A stretch of DNA of 64,000 nucleotides from NCBI GenBank assembly GCA_029742005.1, contig GCA_029742005.1_4113.1. One strand, written 5' to 3'. Source of the DNA: a phage. The notes beneath the pieces are model-generated. The model saw only the letters and a list, made by a program, of their open reading frames with translations. It had not been told where the DNA came from and made no database searches. The position numbers and the translations under genes are program-made. Shown piece by piece: positions 26,869-51,484 of this stretch. The stretch's first letter is position 1, and every line of letters begins with the position of its first letter.

Positions 26869-27506
26869 TTAAACACAAGTAGACAGGGGAAGCTCCTAGT
26901 GAACAACCTTTATGTACAGGCGAATTGTTAAAATTCAGCCTGGACAAATGCGATCACTAGGATTCTCCCCAGGCTAAACCCCGTAATCATAGGTAGTCAT
27001 AAGTAATCATATATAAACATTTATATGAGCACCGTAGAATCACAGAATGATTATATATGATTCAGTACTGATTAGTATAGACAAGATTGCTCAAGAATGC
27101 ACGGAAATGTGTGTGAATGATTCAGTACTGATATCCCACTAAGTAGGCAGAGGAAGTCTGCCGTACTTTTTAGTTTCCAAGCTCCTTTTCCATTTTTCAA
27201 ATTACATCAAATGTAATCAAAAGTAATCACGCAATGATTAGTACTGAATTATTACTTTCACCTTAATTTCAATGACCCCTTTACCCTTCGGGGTAAAATT
27301 CCATTACCCCTTGAGGCTCCAGCAAAAAGTTGGTTAGTACTCCATCCTAAATCTCGATCCTAAAAATTTTGGAGTACCTATGAAATAAAAGTTGGATCTT
27401 CGAAAGTTGAAATTTACGTTGGGACGTTTATGATTTGTGGGATATAATGATGTTTGTAGTCGGGTAGTTCTCAAGAATATCAGTACTGAATAATGAAAGA
27501 AAGCTA

Positions 27507-27889: not shown

Positions 27890-28060
27890 CCTGGATGGAT
27901 TTTGGACGTAGATATGTCTAGCCCTCCAGAAGTCTGGAAGTAAAGATGGCTATCCATCTAGACGGCTAAACGGCTAGATTTCTGGATGGCTGGATGGCTA
28001 GACGTTTGGACGGCTAAACGGCTAGATGGTTACACGTCTGGAAGTATAGACGGCTAAATC
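27890..28060. repeat. iteron-like direct repeat cluster
   Basis: GACGGCTAAACGGCTAGAT at 27961 and 28009, partial at 28049; TCTGGAAGTA twice; palindrome AGATGGCTATCCATCT. Confidence 0.6.
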
Positions 28061-28816
28061 AAAATTTTATTTTGTTTTTTCCAATAGTTCCCCTACCGCG
28101 TGGGGATAGTTTCCCCGCAGTATCTGGAGTTAGATTTTTCTGAATCTGGAATCATTATCTTATAAACTGGGGGCAATGTCAACCGCCTGGACGGATATTT
28201 TTAAAAATTTTTTCAGTACTGAATTTTGGGCGTAACTATGCACCCGGTGGGCTATAGTCTTTCTCGACTTGATGGAACTATTATACAGTACTGAAAAAAT
28301 AAAGCAATACCCTGGAAGCAAAAAAGTTTTAATTAATTTGCTTGCCATCCTGGGCCGTACTATGGTACTATATTTCAGTACTGAGAAAGTGCGTTTACCT
28401 GCTAGGGTGCGGGAGTGTATCCTTTTTTTATATCTTGAATTTTGGGCGTAATTCCGCACCCTCTGGGGTTTCCGCTTTCTCGCGTCTATGTAGTAATTAT
28501 ACGCTTTTTCAGGATCAAGTCAATACCTAAAAACAAAATAATTGAAAATAATTTAACGCGTTTAAACGGCCCGTAACGCCCTGGAATGATTGGAATGGTG
28601 CAAATGTATAGCTTAGGTGTATTAATGCGTTAGAATGCGTCTGAGGCCGTTTTACGGGGTATGGGGATGATTTAGTGGATTGATTCAGTACTGAATGATA
28701 GTACTACTATATAGAAAGATAGTTCCCCTGGATGGTTGCAGTACTGAATGATAGTACTGAATAATAGTTCCCCTATATAGAAAGAAAACTATTTTAAAAG
28801 TATTTGTAGAAAGTAC

Positions 28817-29680: not shown

Positions 29681-29947
29681 ATGAATATTAAGTATTTTGC
29701 GACGCGTGAACAAGCTCGGATCGCCGCACGCCAGGACGGGGCAACGTTTAAAGATATGGGCGTACAATCGGAACGTGGTAAACGTTGGGCCATTATAAAG
29801 CGTAGTACCGCCAGATCATTACAGTACTGGCTATCTGCTTTAAAGCGTCCTGATAGTGTATCGCGTCGCGTGGTAGAAATAAAGCACGACCGCAAGGGCA
29901 ACCGCGTTACTGTGTACAGTACTAAAAAGATAGCAGTACTTGAATAA
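29681..29947 (+). CDS. hypothetical protein, KYFATREQAR family
   Basis: Paralog of 40678-41073 (shared ..FATREQARI.AR..G.TFKDMG.. and ..HDRKGNRVTVYS..). Confidence 0.55.
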   Translation: MNIKYFATREQARIAARQDGATFKDMGVQSERGKRWAIIKRSTARSLQYWLSALKRPDSVSRRVVEIKHDRKGNRVTVYSTKKIAVLE

Positions 29948-30131
29948 AAGTACTTGCATACTATGTTTAAAGGCGTATAATGTTTTACATCAGGACGGGG
30001 AACGAAATAAGTAACTTCCCGTTAAGTAGCCCAGGAGTAAGGCACACGAAAAACTCCCCTGATAAAATAGTTTGACAAATGTTTTTAAAAGCGTATAATA
30101 CTTACATCAACTACTGAATGAGGGTTACAAA
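29946..30131 (+). repeat. dual-promoter repeat unit, copy 1
   Basis: Near-identical to 39417-39601; promoters at 29954-29981 and 30072-30099. Confidence 0.6.
29988..30070 (+). ncRNA. candidate small RNA between tandem promoters
   Basis: Hairpin ACGGGGAA..CTTCCCCGT; no ATG-initiated ORF; conserved in second copy. Confidence 0.3.
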
Positions 30132-31714: not shown

Positions 31715-31747
31715 CGCGGGGAGATAATAACTCCCCGTTACTTTTTC
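31715..31747 (+). terminator. rho-independent terminator
   Basis: CGCGGGGAG..CTCCCCGT hairpin + TTACTTTTTC. Confidence 0.6.
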
Positions 31748-31954
31748 AGTACTGAATCATTTAATAGACGGATCTATGCACCCGGTGGGTTAGTGACTGT
31801 TTCGTCTTGATGTAGTAATTATGCCAGTACTGGATGCACTTGTCAACAATTATTTTTCAAATACTTTTTATTAAAATACTTGCAATTAGTTTTTAAACGC
31901 GTATAATGTTTTGCATAGGGGGAGCGGTTCCCCTGGTAACTAAGGAATAATAAA

Positions 31955-36136: not shown

Positions 36137-36280
36137 ATGAATCCAACAGGTTTAAACTATAAAAGTTGTTCGGCGTTTACGAAAGCAAATAAAGCGAATG
36201 CACGTAAAGCGAAAGTACAGGAATACATCAAGCAAGGCATGACGCGAAAGGCGGCGATTCTAAAAGCTAAAAATAAATGA
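36137..36280 (+). CDS. small basic protein (47 aa)
   Basis: Starts right after previous stop; Lys/Ala-rich; terminator follows. Confidence 0.35.
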   Translation: MNPTGLNYKSCSAFTKANKANARKAKVQEYIKQGMTRKAAILKAKNK

Positions 36281-36285
36281 AAAAA

Positions 36286-36319
36286 GTGGTTGACTCCGGT
36301 CAGCCATTTTGCTATTATA
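36286..36319 (+). terminator. terminator-promoter composite (hairpin with TTGACT, then TATTAT)
   Basis: TGGTTGACTCCGGTCAGCCA hairpin; -35 36290-36295; -10 36314-36319. Confidence 0.55.
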
Positions 36320-36490
36320 TATTCATTGAGAGATAGCTCACTAGCCCACAGGGTGCATAAGTGTATCTATTATATAAGTATTGAGTACTGAAAACTATTT
36401 TTAAAAAGTACTTGCAAACTATCTCAATTGGCGTATAATGTTTTACATCGCAAGGGGAAACGGTTTCCCCTGGTAATAAGGAAACGAATC

Positions 36491-36832
36491 ATGACTATCT
36501 CAATTGCTCAATCTAACTTTGAAAACGAAATCATCGCCCAGGCACTGCGTTTAAATGATGGTCGGGCCGAAATTAATTACGGTTTCAATTCAGGCGGTTG
36601 CGAAAAATATCAGTACTTTGTAACGGCTGATGGCGGTGTCCTGGGGATCAATACAGTTATTGTAAACATTCAGAAAATTAATTTCAATGATCCAGAAGAT
36701 AGCCAGTTTTACATCACGGGTGTGAACGTGAACTATGAGGATGATTATCTAACTGATGATCACACTGGCGAGAAGTTAGAAAGTGCATACGGTGAAGATG
36801 ATTATCAGTCCGGTCCAGAAGATTTTGAATAA
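36491..36832 (+). CDS. hypothetical acidic protein
   Basis: Promoter + hairpin upstream; RBS AAGGAAA. Confidence 0.55.
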   Translation: MTISIAQSNFENEIIAQALRLNDGRAEINYGFNSGGCEKYQYFVTADGGVLGINTVIVNIQKINFNDPEDSQFYITGVNVNYEDDYLTDDHTGEKLESAYGEDDYQSGPEDFE

Positions 36833-39278: not shown

Positions 39279-39292
39279 AAAGAATTGAAAAA

Positions 39293-39325
39293 GGGATTGA
39301 CTCCGGTCAGTCCCTTTGCTATTAT
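39293..39325 (+). terminator. terminator-promoter composite
   Basis: GGGATTGACTCCGGTCAGTCCC hairpin; TTGACT-17-TATTAT. Confidence 0.6.
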
Positions 39326-39416
39326 ATATTCATTGAAACAATCTAGCCCACAGGGTGCATAAATGTATCTATTGTTTGCTGGTGGCTAGTACTATCAAGT
39401 ACTGAAAACTATTTTT

Positions 39417-39601
39417 AAAAAGTACTTGCAAAGTATCACGATAAGCGTATAATGTTTTACATCAGGACGGGGAACGAAACAAGTAACTCCCCGTTAAGTA
39501 GTCCAGGAGTAAGACATACGAAAACCTCCCCTGATAAAATAGTTTGACAATAGAAATTAAACGAGTATAATACTTACATCAACCACAAAGAGGAATACAA
39601 A
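39417..39601 (+). repeat. dual-promoter repeat unit, copy 2
   Basis: Near-identical to 29946-30131. Confidence 0.6.
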
Positions 39602-40629: not shown

Positions 40630-40677
40630 AGACTCTAACTTGTAGTACTAATTAACTTAACTAATAGGATGTACACC

Positions 40678-41073
40678 ATGATTACTAAATTCTTCGCTAC
40701 CCGTGAACAAGCTCGCATCGTTGCCCGTGAAGAAGGTGAAACATTTAAAGACATGGGCAAAGATGCACCGAAAGGACAACGCTGGGCGGTACAGTTCAAA
40801 GAGATCTCTGATATTGTGAATTCACCTGAACCAGTACTTACTGAAGCAGAACTAAAGCAAGCTCAAGAACTGGCTGAAGTACTGAACGCTCAAGATGACT
40901 TCTTGGAAGGTTCTGATATTCAAGTACAAGTGAATAGTAATGCATGGACTCACGCGGATCACCTGGCAAACCTTAAGCGTCCAAGTGAACTGATTCGTAA
41001 CCAGAAAGAGATCCGTCATGACCGTAAAGGAAACCGTGTAACAGTATACAGTAAACGCCGCCAGGTTATCTAA
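40678..41073 (+). CDS. hypothetical protein, KFFATREQAR family
   Basis: Paralog of 29681-29947. Confidence 0.55.
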   Translation: MITKFFATREQARIVAREEGETFKDMGKDAPKGQRWAVQFKEISDIVNSPEPVLTEAELKQAQELAEVLNAQDDFLEGSDIQVQVNSNAWTHADHLANLKRPSELIRNQKEIRHDRKGNRVTVYSKRRQVI

Positions 41074-41095: not shown

Positions 41096-41120
41096 GGCGG
41101 GTTCAGTTCCCGCCTTTTTT
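41096..41120 (+). terminator. rho-independent terminator
   Basis: GGCGGG-TTCAGTT-CCCGCC + TTTTTT. Confidence 0.7.
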
Positions 41121-41135
41121 ATAGGATAAACTAAA

Positions 41136-41390
41136 ATGATGAAGGTACAACTATCTAAAGATAATATCTTGCGGGTACACTATAAAGCACCACAGAGAAT
41201 CATCACAAAGGCCGTACAGCTTGCTAATGAGTTTATTAATGGTAGTCTATTACCCAGGAAGTTAAGCAACGGAAAACTACGTGTTATCGATGTAGACACT
41301 AACAATAGAATAGTAATTGAGAGTACTGGAAAAATTAATCTATATGAACACCAACAATACAATAAAAAAATAAAACTAATATCACGTTGA
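41136..41390 (+). CDS. hypothetical protein
   Basis: RBS TAGGATAAA. Confidence 0.5.
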   Translation: MMKVQLSKDNILRVHYKAPQRIITKAVQLANEFINGSLLPRKLSNGKLRVIDVDTNNRIVIESTGKINLYEHQQYNKKIKLISR

Positions 41391-42582: not shown

Positions 42583-42596
42583 AAAAGATTAAAAAA

Positions 42597-42629
42597 GGGA
42601 TTGACTCCAGTCAGTCCCTTTGCTATTAT
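42597..42629 (+). terminator. terminator-promoter composite
   Basis: GGGATTGACTCCAGTCAGTCCC hairpin; TTGACT-17-TATTAT. Confidence 0.6.
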
Positions 42630-42803
42630 ATATTCATTGAGAGATAACTCACTGACCCATAGGGTGCGGAAGTGTATCTATTATATAAGTATTCAGTACT
42701 GAAAACTATTTGATAAAAAGTACTTGCAAACTATCTCAAAGAGCGTATAATGTTTTATATCGAGAGGGGGAAATGGTTTCCCCTCAAGTCCAGGAGATAC
42801 ACC

Positions 42804-43067
42804 ATGAACACTATCGAAATCACTATCAATGCACACGTATACGACAACGTAGTACTGCAAACTACTATGACCGCTAACGATACCAGTACTTTGCGGAATA
42901 CTGTTATTAGTGCTGTATGTGCCGCTATCGGTGATGTCGCCCTGGAAAATGCAAAACACGTAAACGATGGTTTCACTATGTGCAAACGTGATAACGCAAA
43001 ACATATCATCGTAGAAGGTTACGGCGGTGTAGAATATAATGTTTATATGAAAAAAGTACTTGCATAG
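42804..43067 (+). CDS. hypothetical protein
   Basis: Promoter + hairpin GAGAGGGGGAAATGGTTTCCCCTC upstream. Confidence 0.55.
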   Translation: MNTIEITINAHVYDNVVLQTTMTANDTSTLRNTVISAVCAAIGDVALENAKHVNDGFTMCKRDNAKHIIVEGYGGVEYNVYMKKVLA

Positions 43068-43983: not shown

Positions 43984-44000
43984 CAAAAAAGAATAAAAAA

Positions 44001-44033
44001 GGGATTGACTCCGGTCAGTCCCTTTGCTATTAT
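44001..44033 (+). terminator. terminator-promoter composite
   Basis: GGGATTGACTCCGGTCAGTCCC hairpin; TTGACT-17-TATTAT. Confidence 0.6.
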
Positions 44034-44228
44034 ATACGCATAGACAAAAACTAGCCCACTGGGTGCATAAGTGTATCCAAAATATATAGTTAATAACGGT
44101 GAGTAACTATCTGCTGGTGGAGTGAAAACTATTAATAAAAAAAGTATTGACAAAGTATATCAGTACTGCGATAATGTATCTCGTAGGGCGGCAATGGTGC
44201 GACGGCCCACAAAGTTAGGAGATTCAAA

Positions 44229-44561
44229 ATGACTACTTCAATCGCTATCGTTAAAGCTTTCATCCGTACTAATGTTTCCTCTGTATTCATCGACGGCCTC
44301 GACCGTAACGTAGAATACTCAATCATTATCGCACAAACGGCAAACGGTTCTCGGTACATCCTGAATGATAGTGAAGCAAATCACTACTACTTCACTAAAG
44401 CCACTGGCTTTAAACGCATCGATGCTGATGTAGTATACGCTAAGATGAATAAGCTGGTAGATAAGATTAACGCTAAAGGTACTATAGATTTACAGTACTG
44501 GACCGAAACCGATCCAGAATATGGATCTCACCGCTACCTGAATCCAGGTATTAAAATGTAA
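44229..44561 (+). CDS. hypothetical protein
   Basis: RBS TAGGAGA. Confidence 0.55.
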   Translation: MTTSIAIVKAFIRTNVSSVFIDGLDRNVEYSIIIAQTANGSRYILNDSEANHYYFTKATGFKRIDADVVYAKMNKLVDKINAKGTIDLQYWTETDPEYGSHRYLNPGIKM

Positions 44562-45561: not shown

Positions 45562-45759
45562 ATGCGTATTTTAACTGAAGAAGAGCACAACCACACACTC
45601 ATATCCAACATGGCATATATCCTACATATGTCACATATCCGTGGTATTGCATATAAGCGTGAATTGGTTATGAAACTTTTCATAGGAACTAACTATCAAG
45701 AAAAGTATATCGAACTATACTTACAAGAATTACGAAGGGACATAAAAGGAAGACGATGA
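45562..45759 (+). CDS. small protein, LGTNYQ-motif family C
   Basis: RBS AAAGGAG; ..FIGTNYQEKY.. Confidence 0.55.
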   Translation: MRILTEEEHNHTLISNMAYILHMSHIRGIAYKRELVMKLFIGTNYQEKYIELYLQELRRDIKGRR

Positions 45760-45956
45760 AAATGCGTATTTTAAATAAAGAAGATTATCAAGAACTGTTA
45801 TGTAAAAACATGGTAAAGATTTATAACACAGACACAAACTTAGAACGAATTGAGTTATACCTTTTGATTACATTGGGAACAAGCTATCAGAGAAGATGGG
45901 TGATTCAATATATGGATGCATTGAAAAATGAAATATTGTCCACGAGGAAACAATGA
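45756..45956 (+). CDS. small protein, family C
   Basis: ATGA overlap; ..LGTSYQRR.. Confidence 0.5.
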   Translation: MKMRILNKEDYQELLCKNMVKIYNTDTNLERIELYLLITLGTSYQRRWVIQYMDALKNEILSTRKQ

Positions 45957-46162
45957 AAACTATAACACGAACCCAATCATACGGTCTTATCTTGAGATAC
46001 ATGGACTTAATGTTGGATATCAGCAAAGACCTTCCTAAAACTGCAATTGAAGTTACAAGAGCAGAGATCCGCATGTTGGCTGTACTGAACACAAACCATC
46101 AGGAAGAGTATGTTGATGATTGGATTAATTTTTTAATTCAAGATATAAAGAGTAAACTATGA
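45953..46162 (+). CDS. small protein, family C
   Basis: ATGA overlap; ..LNTNHQEEY.. Confidence 0.5.
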   Translation: MKTITRTQSYGLILRYMDLMLDISKDLPKTAIEVTRAEIRMLAVLNTNHQEEYVDDWINFLIQDIKSKL

Positions 46163-46371
46163 TTTTTTTAACACCAGAAGAATATAAGATACGTTTTGTT
46201 TCTGTCCAGAATAAAATCTTAATTATATACAATTCAAATGCAGACCTTAACTTATCAAGGGTATTAGAAAAAGATTTACTTATGGGTGCATTTTTGGATA
46301 CAGACTTTCAGGAGTATTATGTAGGGGAATACTTAATTGCACTCAAGAATTATATTAAGAGTAAACTATGA
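46159..46371 (+). CDS. small protein, family C
   Basis: ATGA overlap; ..LDTDFQEYY.. Confidence 0.5.
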   Translation: MIFLTPEEYKIRFVSVQNKILIIYNSNADLNLSRVLEKDLLMGAFLDTDFQEYYVGEYLIALKNYIKSKL

Positions 46372-46583
46372 ATATCATTGCAAACTCAAATCAATATACC
46401 GAACGCGTCGCTGCAAGACAACTTGAAATTCTCATAGTATACGAAGAGACTTCTGATTTAAACTTAGCCGAGGTATTGGAAAATGATATACTATTGGGTG
46501 CATTCCTCGGCACAGACTATCAGGAGCACTTCTTGAATGAGTATATAATTGCACTCCAGAAATACATTAAGAGCAAACTATGA
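46368..46583 (+). CDS. small protein, family C
   Basis: ATGA overlap; ..LGTDYQEHF.. Confidence 0.5.
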   Translation: MNIIANSNQYTERVAARQLEILIVYEETSDLNLAEVLENDILLGAFLGTDYQEHFLNEYIIALQKYIKSKL

Positions 46584-46816
46584 AACATTTAAGTAACTCC
46601 GAGAAGAATAAAATTATCGTTGCTGCAATAAACAAATATTTTACACTTCCTCACACAGAAGGTTTATGTGTAAGAGAACACAGGATAAACACCACCGATA
46701 TACGCATGATGGCTGTACTGGGGACTAACTTTCAGAAGGAGTATGTTGATGCACACATTACCGCACTGATGAACTTTATAATGGGAAAGGTAAATGAAAC
46801 ACTTAACACTAGATGA
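46580..46816 (+). CDS. small protein, family C
   Basis: ATGA overlap; ..LGTNFQKEY.. Confidence 0.5.
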   Translation: MKHLSNSEKNKIIVAAINKYFTLPHTEGLCVREHRINTTDIRMMAVLGTNFQKEYVDAHITALMNFIMGKVNETLNTR

Positions 46817-47051
46817 ATATGAAACTATAGTCCGTAAACTAACCCCTATAGCAAGGATAGTCTACGATGACCCCAGCCTTACATGGAACCAAATGCGAGC
46901 TAAAGTTAATGAGCTATGGTTGCTGTACTTTATGGGAACGCAATATCAAGATAAGTTTTGCACAGAATATGTCGAACAATTAATGAATGTTATACAGGAT
47001 AAACTAGATGATTATTGGCTCGCAAAACATGAAGACTTTATCAGGAGTTGA
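46794..47051 (+). CDS. small protein, family C
   Basis: ..MGTQYQDKF.. Confidence 0.5.
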   Translation: MKHLTLDEYETIVRKLTPIARIVYDDPSLTWNQMRAKVNELWLLYFMGTQYQDKFCTEYVEQLMNVIQDKLDDYWLAKHEDFIRS

Positions 47052-47280
47052 GTATCAAACTGCCCTATTCTCTTTAATCCATACCCTTAGAAAAAACAAT
47101 GCCTTACATGGTGCACCTGAAGTGGATGTTATCAACGGTGAACTTTATCTGATGAAATTCATTGGAACAAACTATCAAGATCTGTTCATTCAACGATACC
47201 TATCAGCATTAAGAAACCAAATCCAATATAAAACCATCAAGGCCAAAAAAGAATGGAATAAACAATGCGACACAGACTAA
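47029..47280 (+). CDS. small protein, family C
   Basis: ..IGTNYQDLF..; start uncertain. Confidence 0.45.
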   Translation: MKTLSGVEYQTALFSLIHTLRKNNALHGAPEVDVINGELYLMKFIGTNYQDLFIQRYLSALRNQIQYKTIKAKKEWNKQCDTD

Positions 47281-47516
47281 ATCACAAAATGTATTGTAAA
47301 CTATTGCAGACACTGGCACAGAAACACTATGACACGGTATCTGAAATATTACCCTATGATATCATGCGTTTACTTCACTGTGAGGCCGAGATGCTTGTAC
47401 TGATGACAGGCACAGATAAAAAAGCAATTGCCAAATCAATAGATATGTTCATCGAAGCACAATGTCAACACATTAGAACCGAGATATGGAGGCGAGAGAA
47501 TGATAACCCTAAATGA
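47265..47516 (+). CDS. small protein, family C (divergent)
   Basis: ..MTGTDKKAI.. Confidence 0.45.
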   Translation: MRHRLNHKMYCKLLQTLAQKHYDTVSEILPYDIMRLLHCEAEMLVLMTGTDKKAIAKSIDMFIEAQCQHIRTEIWRRENDNPK

Positions 47517-47715
47517 GTATCAGTATCATTGGAGGTTACAAGCTATAAGAAGGAAAGTTGTTAGTATTTCTTTAGACAAGTCTATTGCACAAGAGGACAA
47601 ATGTGTTATAATAGCTGAAATGAAGTTGGGTGTTTTCGTAGGGACAAACTATCAAAACATCTACACTGACGTATTGTTAAGTGTCTTACGTAACAAGGTG
47701 ATATCAAAAGAATGA
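47500..47715 (+). CDS. small protein, family C
   Basis: ..VGTNYQNIY.. Confidence 0.5.
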   Translation: MITLNEYQYHWRLQAIRRKVVSISLDKSIAQEDKCVIIAEMKLGVFVGTNYQNIYTDVLLSVLRNKVISKE

Positions 47716-47930
47716 GAAAATTACAAGGCTTTGAATACATCAGGCTCCTGAAAACATGTGGCAGCAGAAGGAGAATGATATCAAGCGATAAGAGCATCTC
47801 TATTGACCTGAAGCACGCAATGAAAGCTGAACTCTATGTATGAGCACTATTGGGGACAAACTATCAACAAATGTATGTAGACCTATGGATTGATGCATTA
47901 GTCAAGGAGGTCCAAAGTAAATGCAAATGA
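47712..47930 (+). pseudogene. family C member interrupted by in-frame TGA at 47841-47843
   Basis: ATGA overlap start; 43 codons, TGA, then ALLGTNYQQMYVDLWIDALVKEVQSKCK in the same frame. Confidence 0.5.
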
Positions 47931-48139
47931 TTAATTTAAGTAAAGATGAATTTTATGTTCTACTGGCGAAAACTTATTCATTACGCAAGGCCGTTTATGA
48001 TAGTCACATTATTGAACCAACAAAGAAGTTGATTTTAGTATCTGAGATAAAGATGCTTTCAGTCTTAGGAACAAACTACCAAGAGAATGCTGTACTGTTG
48101 TTAATTGATGCCCTCAAGAGAGAGATACAAAGTAAATGA
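47927..48139 (+). CDS. small protein, family C
   Basis: ATGA overlap; ..LGTNYQENA.. Confidence 0.5.
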   Translation: MINLSKDEFYVLLAKTYSLRKAVYDSHIIEPTKKLILVSEIKMLSVLGTNYQENAVLLLIDALKREIQSK

Positions 48140-48375
48140 TTCATTTATCTTACCATGATTATCAAAAACGTTTAAATGCATCAAGGGATATAAGAATTCA
48201 AATCTTCAATAACAAAAAATTGAAACCTGACACCAGAAGAATCAAAATAATCGAAGCAGAGTTATGCAACTTCCTGGGGACGAACTATCAGGCAGGTAAG
48301 GTAAAAAACTATCTTAGAGAACTCATGAATTGTATCGAAAATAAATGCGATGCTTTGGAGGATAAAAATGATTAA
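48136..48375 (+). CDS. small protein, family C
   Basis: ATGA overlap; ..LGTNYQAGK.. Confidence 0.5.
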   Translation: MIHLSYHDYQKRLNASRDIRIQIFNNKKLKPDTRRIKIIEAELCNFLGTNYQAGKVKNYLRELMNCIENKCDALEDKND

Positions 48376-48625
48376 TTTAAATTCTGATGAATATCATGAA
48401 CGCATGGCTAAAATCTCAACTAAACGAAATGAAATCTATCACAACCCAGAAATTCAACACAGTAAGAAAATGATTATGATGCGTGAGTTAAAGTTGGGTG
48501 TATTCTTAGGAACAAACTATCAAGAACCAGAGGTCCAACGCGTATTAAATGAATTACTAATGGAAATCAGAGGTAAGCTTTACTTTCATCAAATGACCCA
48601 ACCACTGAGGTGTACTGTGAAATGA
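48368..48625 (+). CDS. small protein, family C
   Basis: RBS GGAGGA; ..LGTNYQEPE.. Confidence 0.5.
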   Translation: MINLNSDEYHERMAKISTKRNEIYHNPEIQHSKKMIMMRELKLGVFLGTNYQEPEVQRVLNELLMEIRGKLYFHQMTQPLRCTVK

Positions 48626-48837
48626 TCAACATCACATTACAAGAAAGATTCATCCGAATCAACTATGCAATTTCCAAATTAGATGCTACAATAGGATTTC
48701 AAAGTCTACCGTTCAAAACCAGAATGATATTAGAGTGCGAAGCCAGGTTAGGTGTACTGTTAGGGACGCAACACCAACAACGATATGTGGAAATCTGGAT
48801 TGATCTTTTAACCCAAAATGCACATGAGAGAATGTAA
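48622..48837 (+). CDS. small protein, family C
   Basis: ..LGTQHQQRY.. Confidence 0.5.
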   Translation: MINITLQERFIRINYAISKLDATIGFQSLPFKTRMILECEARLGVLLGTQHQQRYVEIWIDLLTQNAHERM

Positions 48838-49068
48838 ATGCAAAATGAAATGATATACTTAACACATGATGAATTTCAAGAGAAGATGTTAAAAGCCAAT
48901 AACATTACTCTTAAGTTCGTTCCAAATCAATCAATATATGAAATGTCTGCGAATGTATTGTTTGAGAAGCTACCATACGTTCTTGGAACTGATAAACAAG
49001 AATTTATGGTTCAAAATATGATTGAGCATCTTGCAATGAGTATTATGGAAAAAGTAAATGCAAAATGA
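48838..49068 (+). CDS. small protein, family C (divergent)
   Basis: ..LGTDKQEFM..; start may be 48850. Confidence 0.45.
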   Translation: MQNEMIYLTHDEFQEKMLKANNITLKFVPNQSIYEMSANVLFEKLPYVLGTDKQEFMVQNMIEHLAMSIMEKVNAK

Positions 49069-49318
49069 AATGAAATACTTAACATATAATGAATACGTCG
49101 AGAGATTAGTTAGTGCCAAGAGATATGCCAATCAACTTCCTAATGATCCAAACCAAACCCCAGAGGAAAAGAATGCGGAAGCTCTATTCCAAGCACTACC
49201 ATACCTTCTTGGAACTGATAGGCAGGAGTATCACGTTGAACGTATAATTAAATCTCTTAAAATCACTATTAAGGAAAAAGTAAATGCAAAAGGAAATGAT
49301 ATACTTAACAGACGATGA
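49058..49318 (+). CDS. small protein, family C (divergent)
   Basis: ..LGTDRQEYH..; start may be 49070. Confidence 0.45.
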   Translation: MQNEMKYLTYNEYVERLVSAKRYANQLPNDPNQTPEEKNAEALFQALPYLLGTDRQEYHVERIIKSLKITIKEKVNAKGNDILNRR

Positions 49319-49541
49319 GTTAAAAGAACGATTAATTAAATCCAGAAAACTTACAAATCAACTTCCAAACGACACAAACAAGTCACCTGCCGAAAGGAGT
49401 GCAGAAGTTTTATACATTCAACTCATGTACTTTCTTGGAACTGACAGACAAGAGTATTACATTGAAAGTATGCTTCGATATCTTAAATTCTCTATAAAGG
49501 AAAAGATACATGCTCAAGAATTTAAAAATCCTAACAGCTAA
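49284..49541 (+). CDS. small protein, family C (divergent)
   Basis: ..LGTDRQEYY..; start may be 49296. Confidence 0.45.
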   Translation: MQKEMIYLTDDELKERLIKSRKLTNQLPNDTNKSPAERSAEVLYIQLMYFLGTDRQEYYIESMLRYLKFSIKEKIHAQEFKNPNS

Positions 49542-49767
49542 TGAATATCATAAGATTGTAATGGAAACTAATAGTGCTTACGCTAAAAAATCAAACCCAA
49601 AGTATATACTGGAACACACATTTGAAGAACGTCAATTAGCTCTAGTTGAAGCAAAACTTCTTGCACTATTAGGAACAAACTATCAGGAAGAATACAATAG
49701 AAAACTAATATACCTTTTAACTAAACACATCAGGAAAAGAAAAAAGCATGAAACACTTGACAGATGA
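49510..49767 (+). CDS. small protein, family C
   Basis: ..LGTNYQEEY.. Confidence 0.5.
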   Translation: MLKNLKILTANEYHKIVMETNSAYAKKSNPKYILEHTFEERQLALVEAKLLALLGTNYQEEYNRKLIYLLTKHIRKRKKHETLDR

Positions 49768-49978
49768 TGAACATGGGCTTATAGTAATGGATGTAATCAA
49801 CATCGAATTCAAAAAGTTGATACGCTACCGTTGTTATGAAGATAAGCAACTCGTTCTAGCAGAACAGAAGTTGTTTCGACTCTTAAACACAAACTACCAA
49901 GCACAATACGAAGAATCGTATATGTACCTTTTGGCGAGGAAAGCAAAAAGAGATTATGAAAATTTTAAGCCACGATAA
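49748..49978 (+). CDS. small protein, family C
   Basis: ..LNTNYQAQY.. Confidence 0.5.
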   Translation: MKHLTDDEHGLIVMDVINIEFKKLIRYRCYEDKQLVLAEQKLFRLLNTNYQAQYEESYMYLLARKAKRDYENFKPR

Positions 49979-50171
49979 ACAAACAGAATTGTTAATCTTT
50001 AATACAAGTAAATTCTTAAACATAACATTGTCTGATATAGATGAGGATGAAAAAGAGTTACTTAGAGCAGATTTAAGAGTTCTTTTATATATTGGAACTA
50101 ACTTCCAAGAGCAATTCGTTGAGGACTACATCGATGAACTTAAAGAATCTGTACTGAGAACATGCAAATGA
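49956..50171 (+). CDS. small protein, family C
   Basis: ..IGTNFQEQF.. Confidence 0.5.
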   Translation: MKILSHDKQTELLIFNTSKFLNITLSDIDEDEKELLRADLRVLLYIGTNFQEQFVEDYIDELKESVLRTCK

Positions 50172-50413
50172 AAATCCTTTCACCAAGTGAATACCACGAA
50201 CTATTAAGTAGTTTAATTCTAAAATTGTATATAGCAAAGACCACAGATTTACCAGATGAAGAAAAAAATATTCTAATGAGTGAAATCTATGTTAATTCTA
50301 CCCTAGGGACTAACTATCAAGAATGTAATATTAATGATTACATCAAAGAACTAAAAAGGTTTATCCAATGCAAATGCGAATCATTACCGGAGAAGAATAC
50401 CGAACAATCATAA
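50168..50413 (+). CDS. small protein, family C
   Basis: ATGA overlap; ..LGTNYQECN..; 3' end runs into next gene. Confidence 0.5.
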   Translation: MKILSPSEYHELLSSLILKLYIAKTTDLPDEEKNILMSEIYVNSTLGTNYQECNINDYIKELKRFIQCKCESLPEKNTEQS

Positions 50414-50610
50414 ATGGACTGTTTTTGAAGTTATTTGCCATTAACACATCAAAACTACCAGATACGGATAAAATTATTAAGTTAAATGAAATCTACGTTC
50501 AAGCTACTCTAGGAACTAACTATCAAGAAGCCAATGTGTATAATTACATTAATACACTTAAAAGGGTAATACAATTAAAATGCACAGACAGCACATACAC
50601 AAACCCCTAG
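50374..50610 (+). CDS. small protein, family C
   Basis: ..LGTNYQEAN..; near-duplicate of 50168. Confidence 0.5.
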   Translation: MRIITGEEYRTIINGLFLKLFAINTSKLPDTDKIIKLNEIYVQATLGTNYQEANVYNYINTLKRVIQLKCTDSTYTNP

Positions 50611-50810
50611 GAACAGCAGAATACATTGAACTAATGGCAGCAAACTTCTCATCCTTTCAGAAACTGATGCAAGAATCAAATAATGATTTAGAATATCATA
50701 TCAAAAGTTCAGATTTAAGATTGTTACTCACTCTAGGAACAGACAGTCAGTACAAATTCGTACAGGAGCATATTAGAGCACTTTTAAATGGCATCAGGAA
50801 TAAACTATGA
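50580..50810 (+). CDS. small protein, family C (divergent)
   Basis: ..LGTDSQYKF.. Confidence 0.45.
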   Translation: MHRQHIHKPLGTAEYIELMAANFSSFQKLMQESNNDLEYHIKSSDLRLLLTLGTDSQYKFVQEHIRALLNGIRNKL

Positions 50811-51022
50811 AGGTAATATCAAACCAAGAGTACTTGGCACTATTCAGAAAAAATAGTCAAGAATTTCTGAATCTTGATACAAGAACTGATATAAGTGAAC
50901 TTGAAAAAAATCTTTTGCGTTCAGAGATGATAGTACTGACACTCTTAGGAACACAGCACCAAGAGAGAACTGTTAATTCACACATAGGGATTCTTATACA
51001 GATAGTACAGGAAAAGATATGA
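50807..51022 (+). CDS. small protein, family C (divergent)
   Basis: ATGA overlap; ..LGTQHQERT.. Confidence 0.5.
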   Translation: MKVISNQEYLALFRKNSQEFLNLDTRTDISELEKNLLRSEMIVLTLLGTQHQERTVNSHIGILIQIVQEKI

Positions 51023-51240
51023 GAATCATAACACAACAAGATATTCTTAAGTTCACAAGGGTTCATGCATCTGAATTTGATGCTATATTATCAAAAAGTT
51101 ACAACAACCCTTATACAGAAGATGTACACTACAGTGAATTATGGGTGTATATACTTTTAGGTACAGATCATCAAGAGCAAGCAGTACAGAAGTATTTGTT
51201 AGCGTTAAGTACTGCTACTGCTAATGGAGTATGTGTTTAA
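51019..51240 (+). CDS. small protein, family C (divergent)
   Basis: ATGA overlap; ..LGTDHQEQA.. Confidence 0.5.
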   Translation: MRIITQQDILKFTRVHASEFDAILSKSYNNPYTEDVHYSELWVYILLGTDHQEQAVQKYLLALSTATANGVCV

Positions 51241-51241
51241 T

Positions 51242-51484
51242 ATGAAAGTACTGACAGAATTAGAAATGTATCATAGATTTAATAAGTACTATCATTTACT
51301 TAAACCTATACAGAGGATTAAGTGTCCCTTTGTAGTGAAACAGGTATTAATTTATGAGCATAAGTTATTTGTATCATTAGGTACGAATGAACAAGAGTAT
51401 TATTTGAAGTTGTACTTAATTACTTTAATTGAATTGATTAATTACAAAACTCAGAAAGCGAAGAAATCTAAAAATGAAAACTAA
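51242..51484 (+). CDS. small protein, family C (divergent)
   Basis: RBS GGAG; ..LGTNEQEYY.. Confidence 0.5.
   Translation: MKVLTELEMYHRFNKYYHLLKPIQRIKCPFVVKQVLIYEHKLFVSLGTNEQEYYLKLYLITLIELINYKTQKAKKSKNEN

Follow-up and report, generated by a model that had tools for sequence, protein, structure and literature searches.

A promoter-linked candidate family of non-coding RNAs or leaders in the terminal repeats of jumbo phages

We analyzed a 64,000-nucleotide (nt) stretch of phage DNA (contig GCA_029742005.1_4113.1; hereafter, the window), in which an intergenic module occurs in four copies, each composed of a terminator-promoter composite, a conserved stretch and a second promoter. From the comparison of the conserved stretch with its relatives, we concluded that it represents a new family of phage non-coding RNAs or leaders, whose transcription and function we infer. 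The element comprises ~55 nt, lies at a fixed distance behind a sigma70-type promoter and shows RNA-like, strand-specific variation. Judged by sequence, the family is conserved in at least five lineages of jumbo phages.

The module, its relatives and their promoters

The best matches of the window were Asteriusvirus jumbo coliphages of ~350–386 kb (121Q, PBECO4, G17, vB_Ec-M-J and fEgEco12). These matches ruled out a T4-type phage as the source genome, which the original prediction had implied by its PeSL (promoter-early stem-loop) vocabulary. In records with determined ends, the matching region is a direct terminal repeat of ~21 kb (PMC13070987). Position 1 of vB_Ec-M-J aligned at window position 27142, and the terminal repeat therefore occupies ~27–48 kb of the window. 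We therefore assign this part of the window to an Asteriusvirus jumbo coliphage (121Q/PBECO4/fEgEco12 group), as its direct terminal repeat of ~21 kb. The repeat consists of a row of tiny genes, almost every one of which has its own sigma70 promoter. The four modules sit in the middle of the repeat, and the module of copy 1 was 100% identical to fEgEco12 and WPEC3.

The modules constituted a single family of the repeat finder (D9, at 36270, 39277, 42581 and 43985) and aligned over ~240 nt with a mean column identity of 75%. The multiple alignment that had been proposed as a check thus confirmed that the composite, conserved stretch and second promoter were placed correctly at 36286, 39293, 42597 and 44001. 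A 43-mer of the module has zero expected occurrences, and the covariance model recognized the four copies with E-values of 2.6e-19 to 2.8e-10. Each module comprises, in order, an A-run with a 12-bp hairpin, promoter 1, the conserved stretch, a variable insert, the block TGAAAACTATT and promoter 2. Promoter 1 has the same form in all four copies (TTGACT, a 17-nt spacer and TATTAT, with a TG extension and an upstream A-run), and its -35 box lies inside the 12-bp hairpin. Behind promoter 2 (TTGCAA or TTGACA, a spacer of 16 or 17 nt, and TATAAT) lie a GC hairpin and then the ribosome-binding site of a small open reading frame (ORF).

All four copies are on the plus strand. In copy 1, the A-run and hairpin (36283–36310) form a terminator-like site, the predicted terminator of the upstream gene; in the alignment of the four copies, this hairpin showed compensatory changes (GTGGTTGAC/GTCAGCCAT versus GGGATTGAC/GTCAGTCCC). 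Promoter 1 (36290–36318) has its predicted start at A36325, and the RNA domain extends over 36321–36374 (70.2 bits, E 2.6e-19). The segment 36412–36490, a member of repeat family D1, contains the PeSL-type promoter 2 (TTGCAA-16-TATAAT, 36412–36439), the GC hairpin GGGGAAACGGTTTCCCC and the ribosome-binding site, and the downstream ORF starts at 36491. Copy 2 comprises the hairpin (39290–39317), promoter 1 (39297–39325), the RNA domain (39328–39376; 46.6 bits) and promoter 2 (39426–39453), which drives a structured non-coding stretch (repeat D11) and not directly an ORF. In copy 3, the hairpin (42594–42621) and promoter 1 (42601–42629) precede the RNA domain (42632–42685; 69.6 bits) and promoter 2 (42724–42751), with the ORF starting at 42804. 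In copy 4, the corresponding features are located at 43998–44025, 44005–44033, 44036–44084 (41.4 bits) and 44147–44175, and the ORF starts at 44229. The variable insert of copies 2 and 4 holds the E. coli Chi octamer GCTGGTGG, at 39378–39385 directly after the RNA domain of copy 2 and at 44113–44120 in copy 4.

The conserved part had been described as lacking an ORF. This holds in substance, although 33-residue ORFs with a TTG start are found mechanically in copies 1 and 3 (36290–36391 and 42601–42702). We rejected coding potential: the start codon of these ORFs lies in the -35 box and thus ahead of the predicted start of transcription, and 5-nt indels break the frame in copies 2 and 4.

The count of four copies proved too low. 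Searched with the covariance model with filters off, the window contained seven solid members and one marginal member, all between 28.2 and 44.1 kb and on both strands, three being on the minus strand. One of these is a stand-alone member (31846–31700, minus strand), with a promoter of TTGACA (31846–31841), a 17-nt spacer and CATAAT (31823–31818), an RNA domain at 31813–31760 (44.3 bits), an AU-rich linker with AGUACUG, and a terminator hairpin at 31738–31716 that it has in common with a convergent plus-strand gene. Its predicted RNA would be ~105–110 nt long and without an ORF; the U-tail of its terminator falls short of our strict terminator rule. A second minus-strand member (28222–28275; 51.0 bits) lies near the physical left end of the genome, and the remaining two form a face-to-face pair at 28368–28491, consisting of a minus-strand member (28491–28438; 31.6 bits) and the marginal plus-strand member (28368–28428).

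The proposed search of other genomes also succeeded. BLAST detected the module in 69 phage records, at 4–11 places per genome, and the hosts of these phages include Klebsiella, Salmonella, Cronobacter, Pectobacterium, Erwinia, Yersinia and Serratia. A profile combined with the covariance model identified 122 members in the window and its relatives (354 kb searched). With 56 additional members in metagenome contigs, the total was 178 (130 distinct), or ~10 per complete terminal repeat. The lineages with members are Asteriusvirus, Alcyoneusvirus, Mimasvirus, Eneladusvirus and the Munch/fENko-Kae01 group, besides the metagenome contigs. Two distant examples are Yersinia phage fHe-Yen9-03 and Pectobacterium phage CBB, whose flanks have diverged but whose core, CCC-N3/4-GGGTGC-N5-TGTATCTAT, is nearly unchanged.

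Outside these phages, there was no true member in 185,579 species genomes, and the single pattern match was not recognized by the covariance model. Nothing similar to the element was found in complete E. coli genomes at E≤10, in a search that is insensitive below ~20 nt. We thus rejected mimicry of a host sequence and a host target. Rfam 15 gave no match for the whole window at gathering thresholds; at E≤10, the best sub-threshold matches of three sub-regions scored 9–18 bits against thresholds of 38–97, were unrelated or terminator-driven, and included none resembling HK022 put. Further, no description of the element was found in the searchable literature.

A sigma70-type promoter was present at a fixed upstream distance in 102 of 115 distinct member contexts; its spacing to the core was unchanged whether or not the promoter was embedded in a hairpin, and the orientation of the element was always tied to it. 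Column 5 of the alignment, located 7 nt past the -10 box, is A in 93% of members and preceded by C or U, and this conserved C/U-A is likely the transcription start. Downstream, three settings were found among the 115 contexts. A second promoter followed within ~190 nt in 52, which is the arrangement of the four reported copies. A strong intrinsic terminator satisfying the strict rule followed in at least 14, many of these terminators being common to a converging gene; such stand-alone units, which lack an ORF and end in a terminator of their own, were present in several lineages. In 26, two elements stood face to face, with 105–136 nt between the domain starts. Each transcript of such a pair would hold its own core and the complement of its partner's core, with a hairpin of 14–16 bp. 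The remaining 23 contexts matched none of these settings.

Pairing and polarity of the conserved domain

The predicted RNA opens with a hairpin, P1, that begins 1–5 nt after the predicted start and has a stem of 3–5 bp and a purine-rich loop of 6–7 nt (AGAUAA, GCGAAA, GAGAAA or AGAACAA). In copy 1, 36327–36330 pairs with 36337–36340. P1 reads UGAG-AGAUAA-CUCA in copy 3 and AGUC-GAGAAA-GACU in the member at 28222–28275; it is short in copy 2 (AUUG-AAA-CAAU) and in copy 4. This part of the module, GAGAGATAGCTCA, had been taken for merely variable, and is in fact a co-varying hairpin, shortened in copies 2 and 4. The stem occurred in 25 distinct combinations with pairing retained; double-sided changes were found at all four pairs, and 94.7% of cells were paired in the model-based alignment. 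The covariation score of P1 was 0.32, compared with at most 0.045 for controls with slid partners. Further, a structure-free scan of mutual information over all column pairs ranked the four pairs of P1 first and detected nothing beyond P1.

A linker, NUAR, connects P1 to the invariant core, R-CCC-N3/4-GGGUGC-R-N4-U-G-Y-R-Y-C-Y (36344–36368 in copy 1), which can form two hairpins. P2 is a small hairpin of R-CCC and GGG-U (G36344–C36347 with G36351–U36354) and was predicted independently by RNAalifold. Its closing R-U pair was AU in 59 and GU in 55 sequences, and its innermost pair was CG in 116, UG in 4 and UA in 2, the UA cases being CCU...AGG variants. P3 consists of 7 bp and a tetraloop (GGGUGCR/UGYRYCY; 36351–36357 with 36362–36368), and reads GGGUG/CGCCC in the member at 28222–28275. 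It was 90.4% paired, compared with 35–42% when the partner columns were slid. The 3' strand of P3 varies solely by transitions that preserve pairing (GU/GC, UA/UG, AU/GU), with pair counts, biased upward because the counting alignment was fitted to the model structure, of GU 71/GC 21, GC 94/GU 7, GU 85/GC 11, UA 71/UG 30, GU 78/GC 22 and AU 47/GU 36. P2 and P3 are mutually exclusive, because both need the GGGU with which P3 starts. Their computed energies were -3.8 ± 0.8 and -3.2 ± 3.8 kcal/mol, respectively, and P3 had the lower energy in 61 of 99 sequences.

Across the three helices, there were 374 G-U pairs and 14 A-C mismatches. The complementary strand would turn each G-U pair into C-A, and thus the structure is expected only in the promoter-sense strand. 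This asymmetry is the main argument that the element would act as RNA, or at least in single-stranded form with a set polarity, rather than as a DNA duplex.

Other structural candidates were rejected. The consensus after P3 is AUWRUW, with no U-run, and a U-run straight after P3 was found in only a few members (U7 in the marginal member of the window, at 28403–28435; relatives L022 at 8937 and L025 at 6887, U5); P3 was therefore not accepted as a general terminator. None of the extra pairings considered (between UAG of the linker and the CUA behind P3, between UAUCU and the P1 loop, and between UGU and the P2 loop; copies inspected by eye) co-varied. A small RNA on the minus strand that ends at the composite hairpin would have the better U-run, but its -10-like box was not conserved and the G-U/A-C asymmetry fixes the opposite polarity.

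Possible functions of the element and alternatives

With modest confidence, we read the element as an early non-coding RNA, or the 5' domain of an RNA, that is recognized by a conserved partner and has a regulatory or decoy role. Upon entry of the terminal repeat, the host sigma70 RNA polymerase would transcribe the element from its strong early promoter, and the conserved stretch would form the 5'-terminal domain of the resulting RNAs, acting at the RNA level rather than through the DNA. The hairpin terminator that encloses the -35 box would keep this domain at a fresh 5' end. P1 may shield the triphosphate 5' end from 5'-end-dependent decay, a protection that is established for 5' stem-loops such as that of ompA. 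Like the hairpin of the E. coli ompA leader, P1 would lie within a few nt of the triphosphate 5' end, and the GC hairpins after other early promoters of the region are placed similarly; in contrast to such stabilizers, which need no conserved sequence, the element has an invariant core after the hairpin. The doubly constrained core could be the surface that is recognized by the conserved partner (an RNA, or a protein of the host or the phage), and its invariance may reflect the need to satisfy two pairings and probably a partner.

Stand-alone copies, with their promoter, domain, AU-rich linker and intrinsic terminator, would yield discrete small RNAs of ~100 nt. They resemble known stand-alone small RNAs of phages or bacteria with a Rho-independent terminator: they lack an ORF, are preceded by a promoter of their own, and combine a conserved 5' region with an AU-rich linker and a U-tailed terminator hairpin. 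Unlike those RNAs, the element is multi-copy and paralogous, its domain would also make up the 5' portion of mRNAs and is found in convergent pairs, and it has no Rfam match. In the four reported copies, the domain would be the first 50 nt of a transcript that runs through promoter 2 into the next small early gene. Taken together, the element may be an abundant early non-coding module of regulatory or decoy type. We rejected a leader of one gene family, as the four downstream proteins were not detectably related.

Several points weigh against this interpretation. In the literature searched, we found no transcriptome for these phages, so that transcription and the 5' and 3' ends are all inferred. 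No terminator precedes promoter 2 in the four reported copies; there the domain amounts to a leader or an upstream transcript and not to a small RNA of its own. A search for antisense targets yielded none in the window and, among matches of ~20 nt or longer, none in E. coli genomes. Pfam and PHROG scans identified no partner among the conserved proteins of the terminal repeat, which are one with a ParE-like domain, a DksA-like zinc finger, a kinase-like protein and a number of unknowns, with no evident RNA binder. A clear 4-bp P1 is missing in 30 of 102 members (~30%), including copies 2 and 4. Outside P1, the support consists of one-sided (wobble) changes, because the 5' strands are invariant, together with a few compensatory cases, and only six P2 variants are informative. 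Finally, the folding z-scores of whole transcripts were weak (-2.0 to +0.7), and the upward bias of the pair counts belongs here as well.

The suggestion of a second small RNA family therefore stood in part. The fixed distance to a sigma70 promoter, the co-varying P1, the wobble-compatible and strand-specific variation and the stand-alone units from promoter to terminator agree with it, but the four copies on which it had been based appear to be leaders.

Among the alternatives, cis-acting control of elongation is possible but rather unlikely. The nascent domain would stay with RNA polymerase and alter termination by antitermination or attenuation, so that transcripts from these promoters either pass the numerous hairpin terminators of the repeat or end ahead of them. 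It could do so as a factor-independent RNA like HK022 put, as a lambda nut-like site with an N-like phage protein, or as an attenuator, with P2 preventing termination and P3 causing termination or a pause; in a further variant, the 11-nt RCCC-N3-GGGU would form an ops-like hairpin in the non-template DNA strand. The element is always promoter-proximal, its two exclusive hairpins with shared GGGU and similar energy have the layout of a classic attenuator, a few members have the U-run directly behind P3, and terminator-like hairpins are crowded in the region (14 found versus 6.0 expected). Like lambda nut and HK022 put, it is a small hairpin signal just behind early promoters in more than one copy per genome, and P1 recalls boxB, a short N-binding hairpin with a GNRA-like purine loop, in its free stem sequence and its purine-rich loop. 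The stem of P1 has 3–5 bp, and its loop of 6–7 nt differs from that of boxB in size and sequence.

However, the consensus after P3 is not a U-run, the second strong promoter that stands between element and gene in 52 of 115 contexts would bypass attenuation, and stand-alone copies lead within ~40 nt to a strong terminator and then into the antisense of a converging gene. The element also differs from lambda nut and HK022 put in its ~10 copies per repeat in both orientations, in the copies directly before a terminator and in its core of competing hairpins. HK022 put consists of two stem-loops of the nascent RNA that influence RNA polymerase in cis and need no protein factor; in the element, a layout of two to three hairpins was observed, for which such an activity would be hypothetical. 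The boxA consensus is CGCTCTTA or TGCTCTTTAACAA. No boxA-like motif ([CT]GCTCTT[TA]A, searched within -60 to +150) was found near any of the 178 members, and no N-like or NusG/RfaH-like protein was identified among the conserved terminal-repeat proteins in the Pfam and PHROG scans.

We likewise give little credence to a new promoter-proximal RNA switch, in which the invariant GGGU would pair alternately with RCCC and with the YRYC strand, the fold being chosen by a conserved factor of host or phage or by the antisense copy of a face-to-face pair. If this were true, host RNA polymerase would be reprogrammed, or the fate of the transcript decided, by the choice of fold, and the whole terminal repeat would be expressed in concert, through ~10 scattered copies, during the first minutes of infection.

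The original prediction had also offered a protein-binding region that marks cassette junctions. As a duplex-DNA site, the element might be an operator immediately behind the start site, bound by a DNA-binding protein of phage or host, or it might serve modular recombination of the PeSL type as a homology patch; the CCC-N3-GGGTGC block is invariant and partly palindromic, and the module lies between gene cassettes. We aligned the terminal repeat of the window (27–48 kb) with those of four relatives (L001, L002, L015 and L032), which gave 46 clusters of alignment ends. Of these breakpoint clusters, 22 lay within 40 nt of a sigma70 promoter cassette, compared with 7.5 ± 2.5 at random (maximum, 16 in 2000 trials). 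Four clusters were located within 150 nt of the four modules, at the flanking promoters, and two of the breakpoints were at the edges of copies 3 and 4 (42714 and 43986). None of the 46 clusters fell inside any RNA domain, and a recombination junction within the element was rejected on this ground. Thus, PeSL-like modular shuffling seems to operate in the terminal repeat of these jumbo phages, with promoters, and not the conserved stretch, as the probable crossover sites. Further, the P1 stem co-varies though its sequence is free, the 374 G-U pairs versus 14 A-C mismatches are sensible only for one strand whose polarity is fixed, and the direction of the element invariably follows that of its promoter. 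The pattern of variation is RNA-like; the reading as a junction-marking protein site was not supported in its original form, and we consider a duplex-DNA site very unlikely. Sites for IHF, DnaA, CRP and CsrA bore a poor resemblance to the element (judged by eye against consensus sequences).

A replication primer or origin appears highly improbable. In this reading, AT-rich DNA behind the element would retain the promoter-proximal transcript in a lasting RNA-DNA hybrid that serves as a primer, comparable to T4 oriF/oriG or ColE1 RNA II, and face-to-face pairs would act like RNA I and RNA II in antisense control of priming. The overlap of ColE1 RNA I and RNA II is ~110 nt, which the convergent pairs (26 of 115 contexts; 105–136 nt) resemble; the structured 5' ends of such pairs would be fully complementary, AT-rich sequence follows the core, and elements are concentrated in the 1.5 kb next to the physical end of the genome. 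Further, these phages possess T4-like replication genes (PMC5259590). On the other hand, ~10 copies per repeat in both orientations are many for origins, the copies are mostly unpaired and most lead straight to another promoter or terminator, and the likeness is limited to the geometry of the pairs. A switch in GC skew at ~27 kb is not independent evidence, because it coincides with a change in gene orientation.

Least probable of all is a passive remnant that spreads with a mobile promoter cassette: the element is always attached to a cassette of the shuffling type and most of P1 is lost in copies 2 and 4, but the core is near-unchanged across genera that share about a third of their proteins (PMC5259590) while the flanks diverge, and the compensatory evolution of P1 requires selection on pairing.

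The terminal repeat as a putative early region

PeSL cassettes were described in the T4-type phages RB49 and phi1 (Arbiol et al., 2010, PMC2839356; Comeau et al., 2014, PMC4122927). The cassettes of the window are similar in their strong sigma70-like promoter, AT-rich upstream DNA and GC stem-loop that adjoins or overlaps the promoter as an upstream terminator (a predicted role here), in their dozens of repeats between tiny orphan genes, and in the position of indel and replacement boundaries at the cassettes. The hairpin over the -35 box fits one of the five PeSL subclasses described. However, a PeSL ends in a Shine-Dalgarno sequence and start codon, whereas here the composite leads to the ~55-nt RNA domain, the insert and a second promoter, and only promoter 2 has that feature. 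PeSLs reside in the hyperplastic region of T4-type phages, and the present cassettes in the direct terminal repeat of a Rak2-like jumbo phage. In the portion of PMC2839356 that we consulted, no comparable conserved RNA domain is described.

Several neighboring genes and repeats attracted our attention. The 113-residue protein encoded after copy 1 (36491–36832; L002, 10562–10903) is labeled DNA ligase in vB_Ec-M-J. Its match to the PHROG so named was weak (E 1e-7), it lacked any Pfam domain, and it was kept in five of six sampled lineages; the label is probably unreliable. Two adjacent small genes at 40669–41073 (phrog_8127) and 41136–41390 (ParE-like toxin domain, PF24732, E 3e-10) were kept in all six sampled lineages, and a terminator-like hairpin (41096–41114) lies between them. 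They may constitute a toxin-antitoxin-like pair in the terminal repeat. Repeat D11 (39418–39586 and 29946–30114; window copies 87% identical) is non-coding and located between a PeSL-type promoter and the next promoter. It includes a structured stretch of ~75 nt with a closing helix (CAUCAGG/CCUGAU) and an inner GGGG/CCCC hairpin (z about -2), and may be another small RNA family. Finally, a paralogous array of small ORFs with the common internal motif TTAGGAACAAACTATCAAGA (45679–51405; repeats D7, D8, D12, D14, D17, D19 and D20) starts near the predicted right boundary of the terminal repeat and extends past it as a locally expanded gene family.

The Chi octamer occurred 14 times in the window, compared with 0.6 expected (3713, 12503, 12761, 13016, 27727, 27739, 33610, 33672, 37397, 38110, 39378, 41761, 43891 and 44113). 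Read from the physical left end, terminal repeats (relatives L002, L033 and L034 included) contained 9–12 octamers on the gene strand per ~20 kb and only two on the other strand. A back-to-back pair, CCACCAGCACAAGCTGGTGG, lies ~0.5–0.6 kb from the left end, and 6 of the 10 octamers in the repeat of the window are intergenic; two are located within module copies 2 and 4. This enrichment looks like a guarding of the linear genome ends against RecBCD. Repeat D10 (27896–28055) adjoins the Chi pair and the gene-orientation switch, ~0.8–0.9 kb from the physical left end, and consists of 8-nt periodic repeats similar to GGCTAGAC and GGATGGCT, which resemble iterons or an array associated with the genome end. 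AGTACT, a palindrome with CAGTACTG as its preferred form, was found at 269 sites in the window versus 19.9 ± 4.3 expected, a 13-fold excess. It occurs in coding and non-coding DNA (for example, at 36384, 36407, 39388, 39398 and 39421), adjoins the -10 or -35 box of most early promoters and is part of some terminators in relatives; its density falls sharply at 44–60 kb.

Rak2-like jumbo phages (121Q, PBECO4, RaK2, K64-1, GAP32, CBB and others) are being isolated for therapy, and their early program is essentially unstudied; nearly all genes of the ~21-kb terminal repeat are annotated as encoding hypothetical proteins. Our results extend the picture of PeSL modular shuffling, as it seems to operate here, from T4-type phages to a distant lineage of jumbo phages. 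Further, they suggest that the first DNA to enter the cell carries ~10 copies of one structured RNA module that is under clear selection for pairing and absent from host genomes and Rfam. A defined RNA of ~55 nt, with predicted start sites and two testable folds, would thus provide a handle on the early take-over of the host. If the core binds RNA polymerase, an RNA chaperone or a defense protein, this would represent a new RNA-based mechanism; even without such a mechanism, the element would be a new RNA family for annotation.

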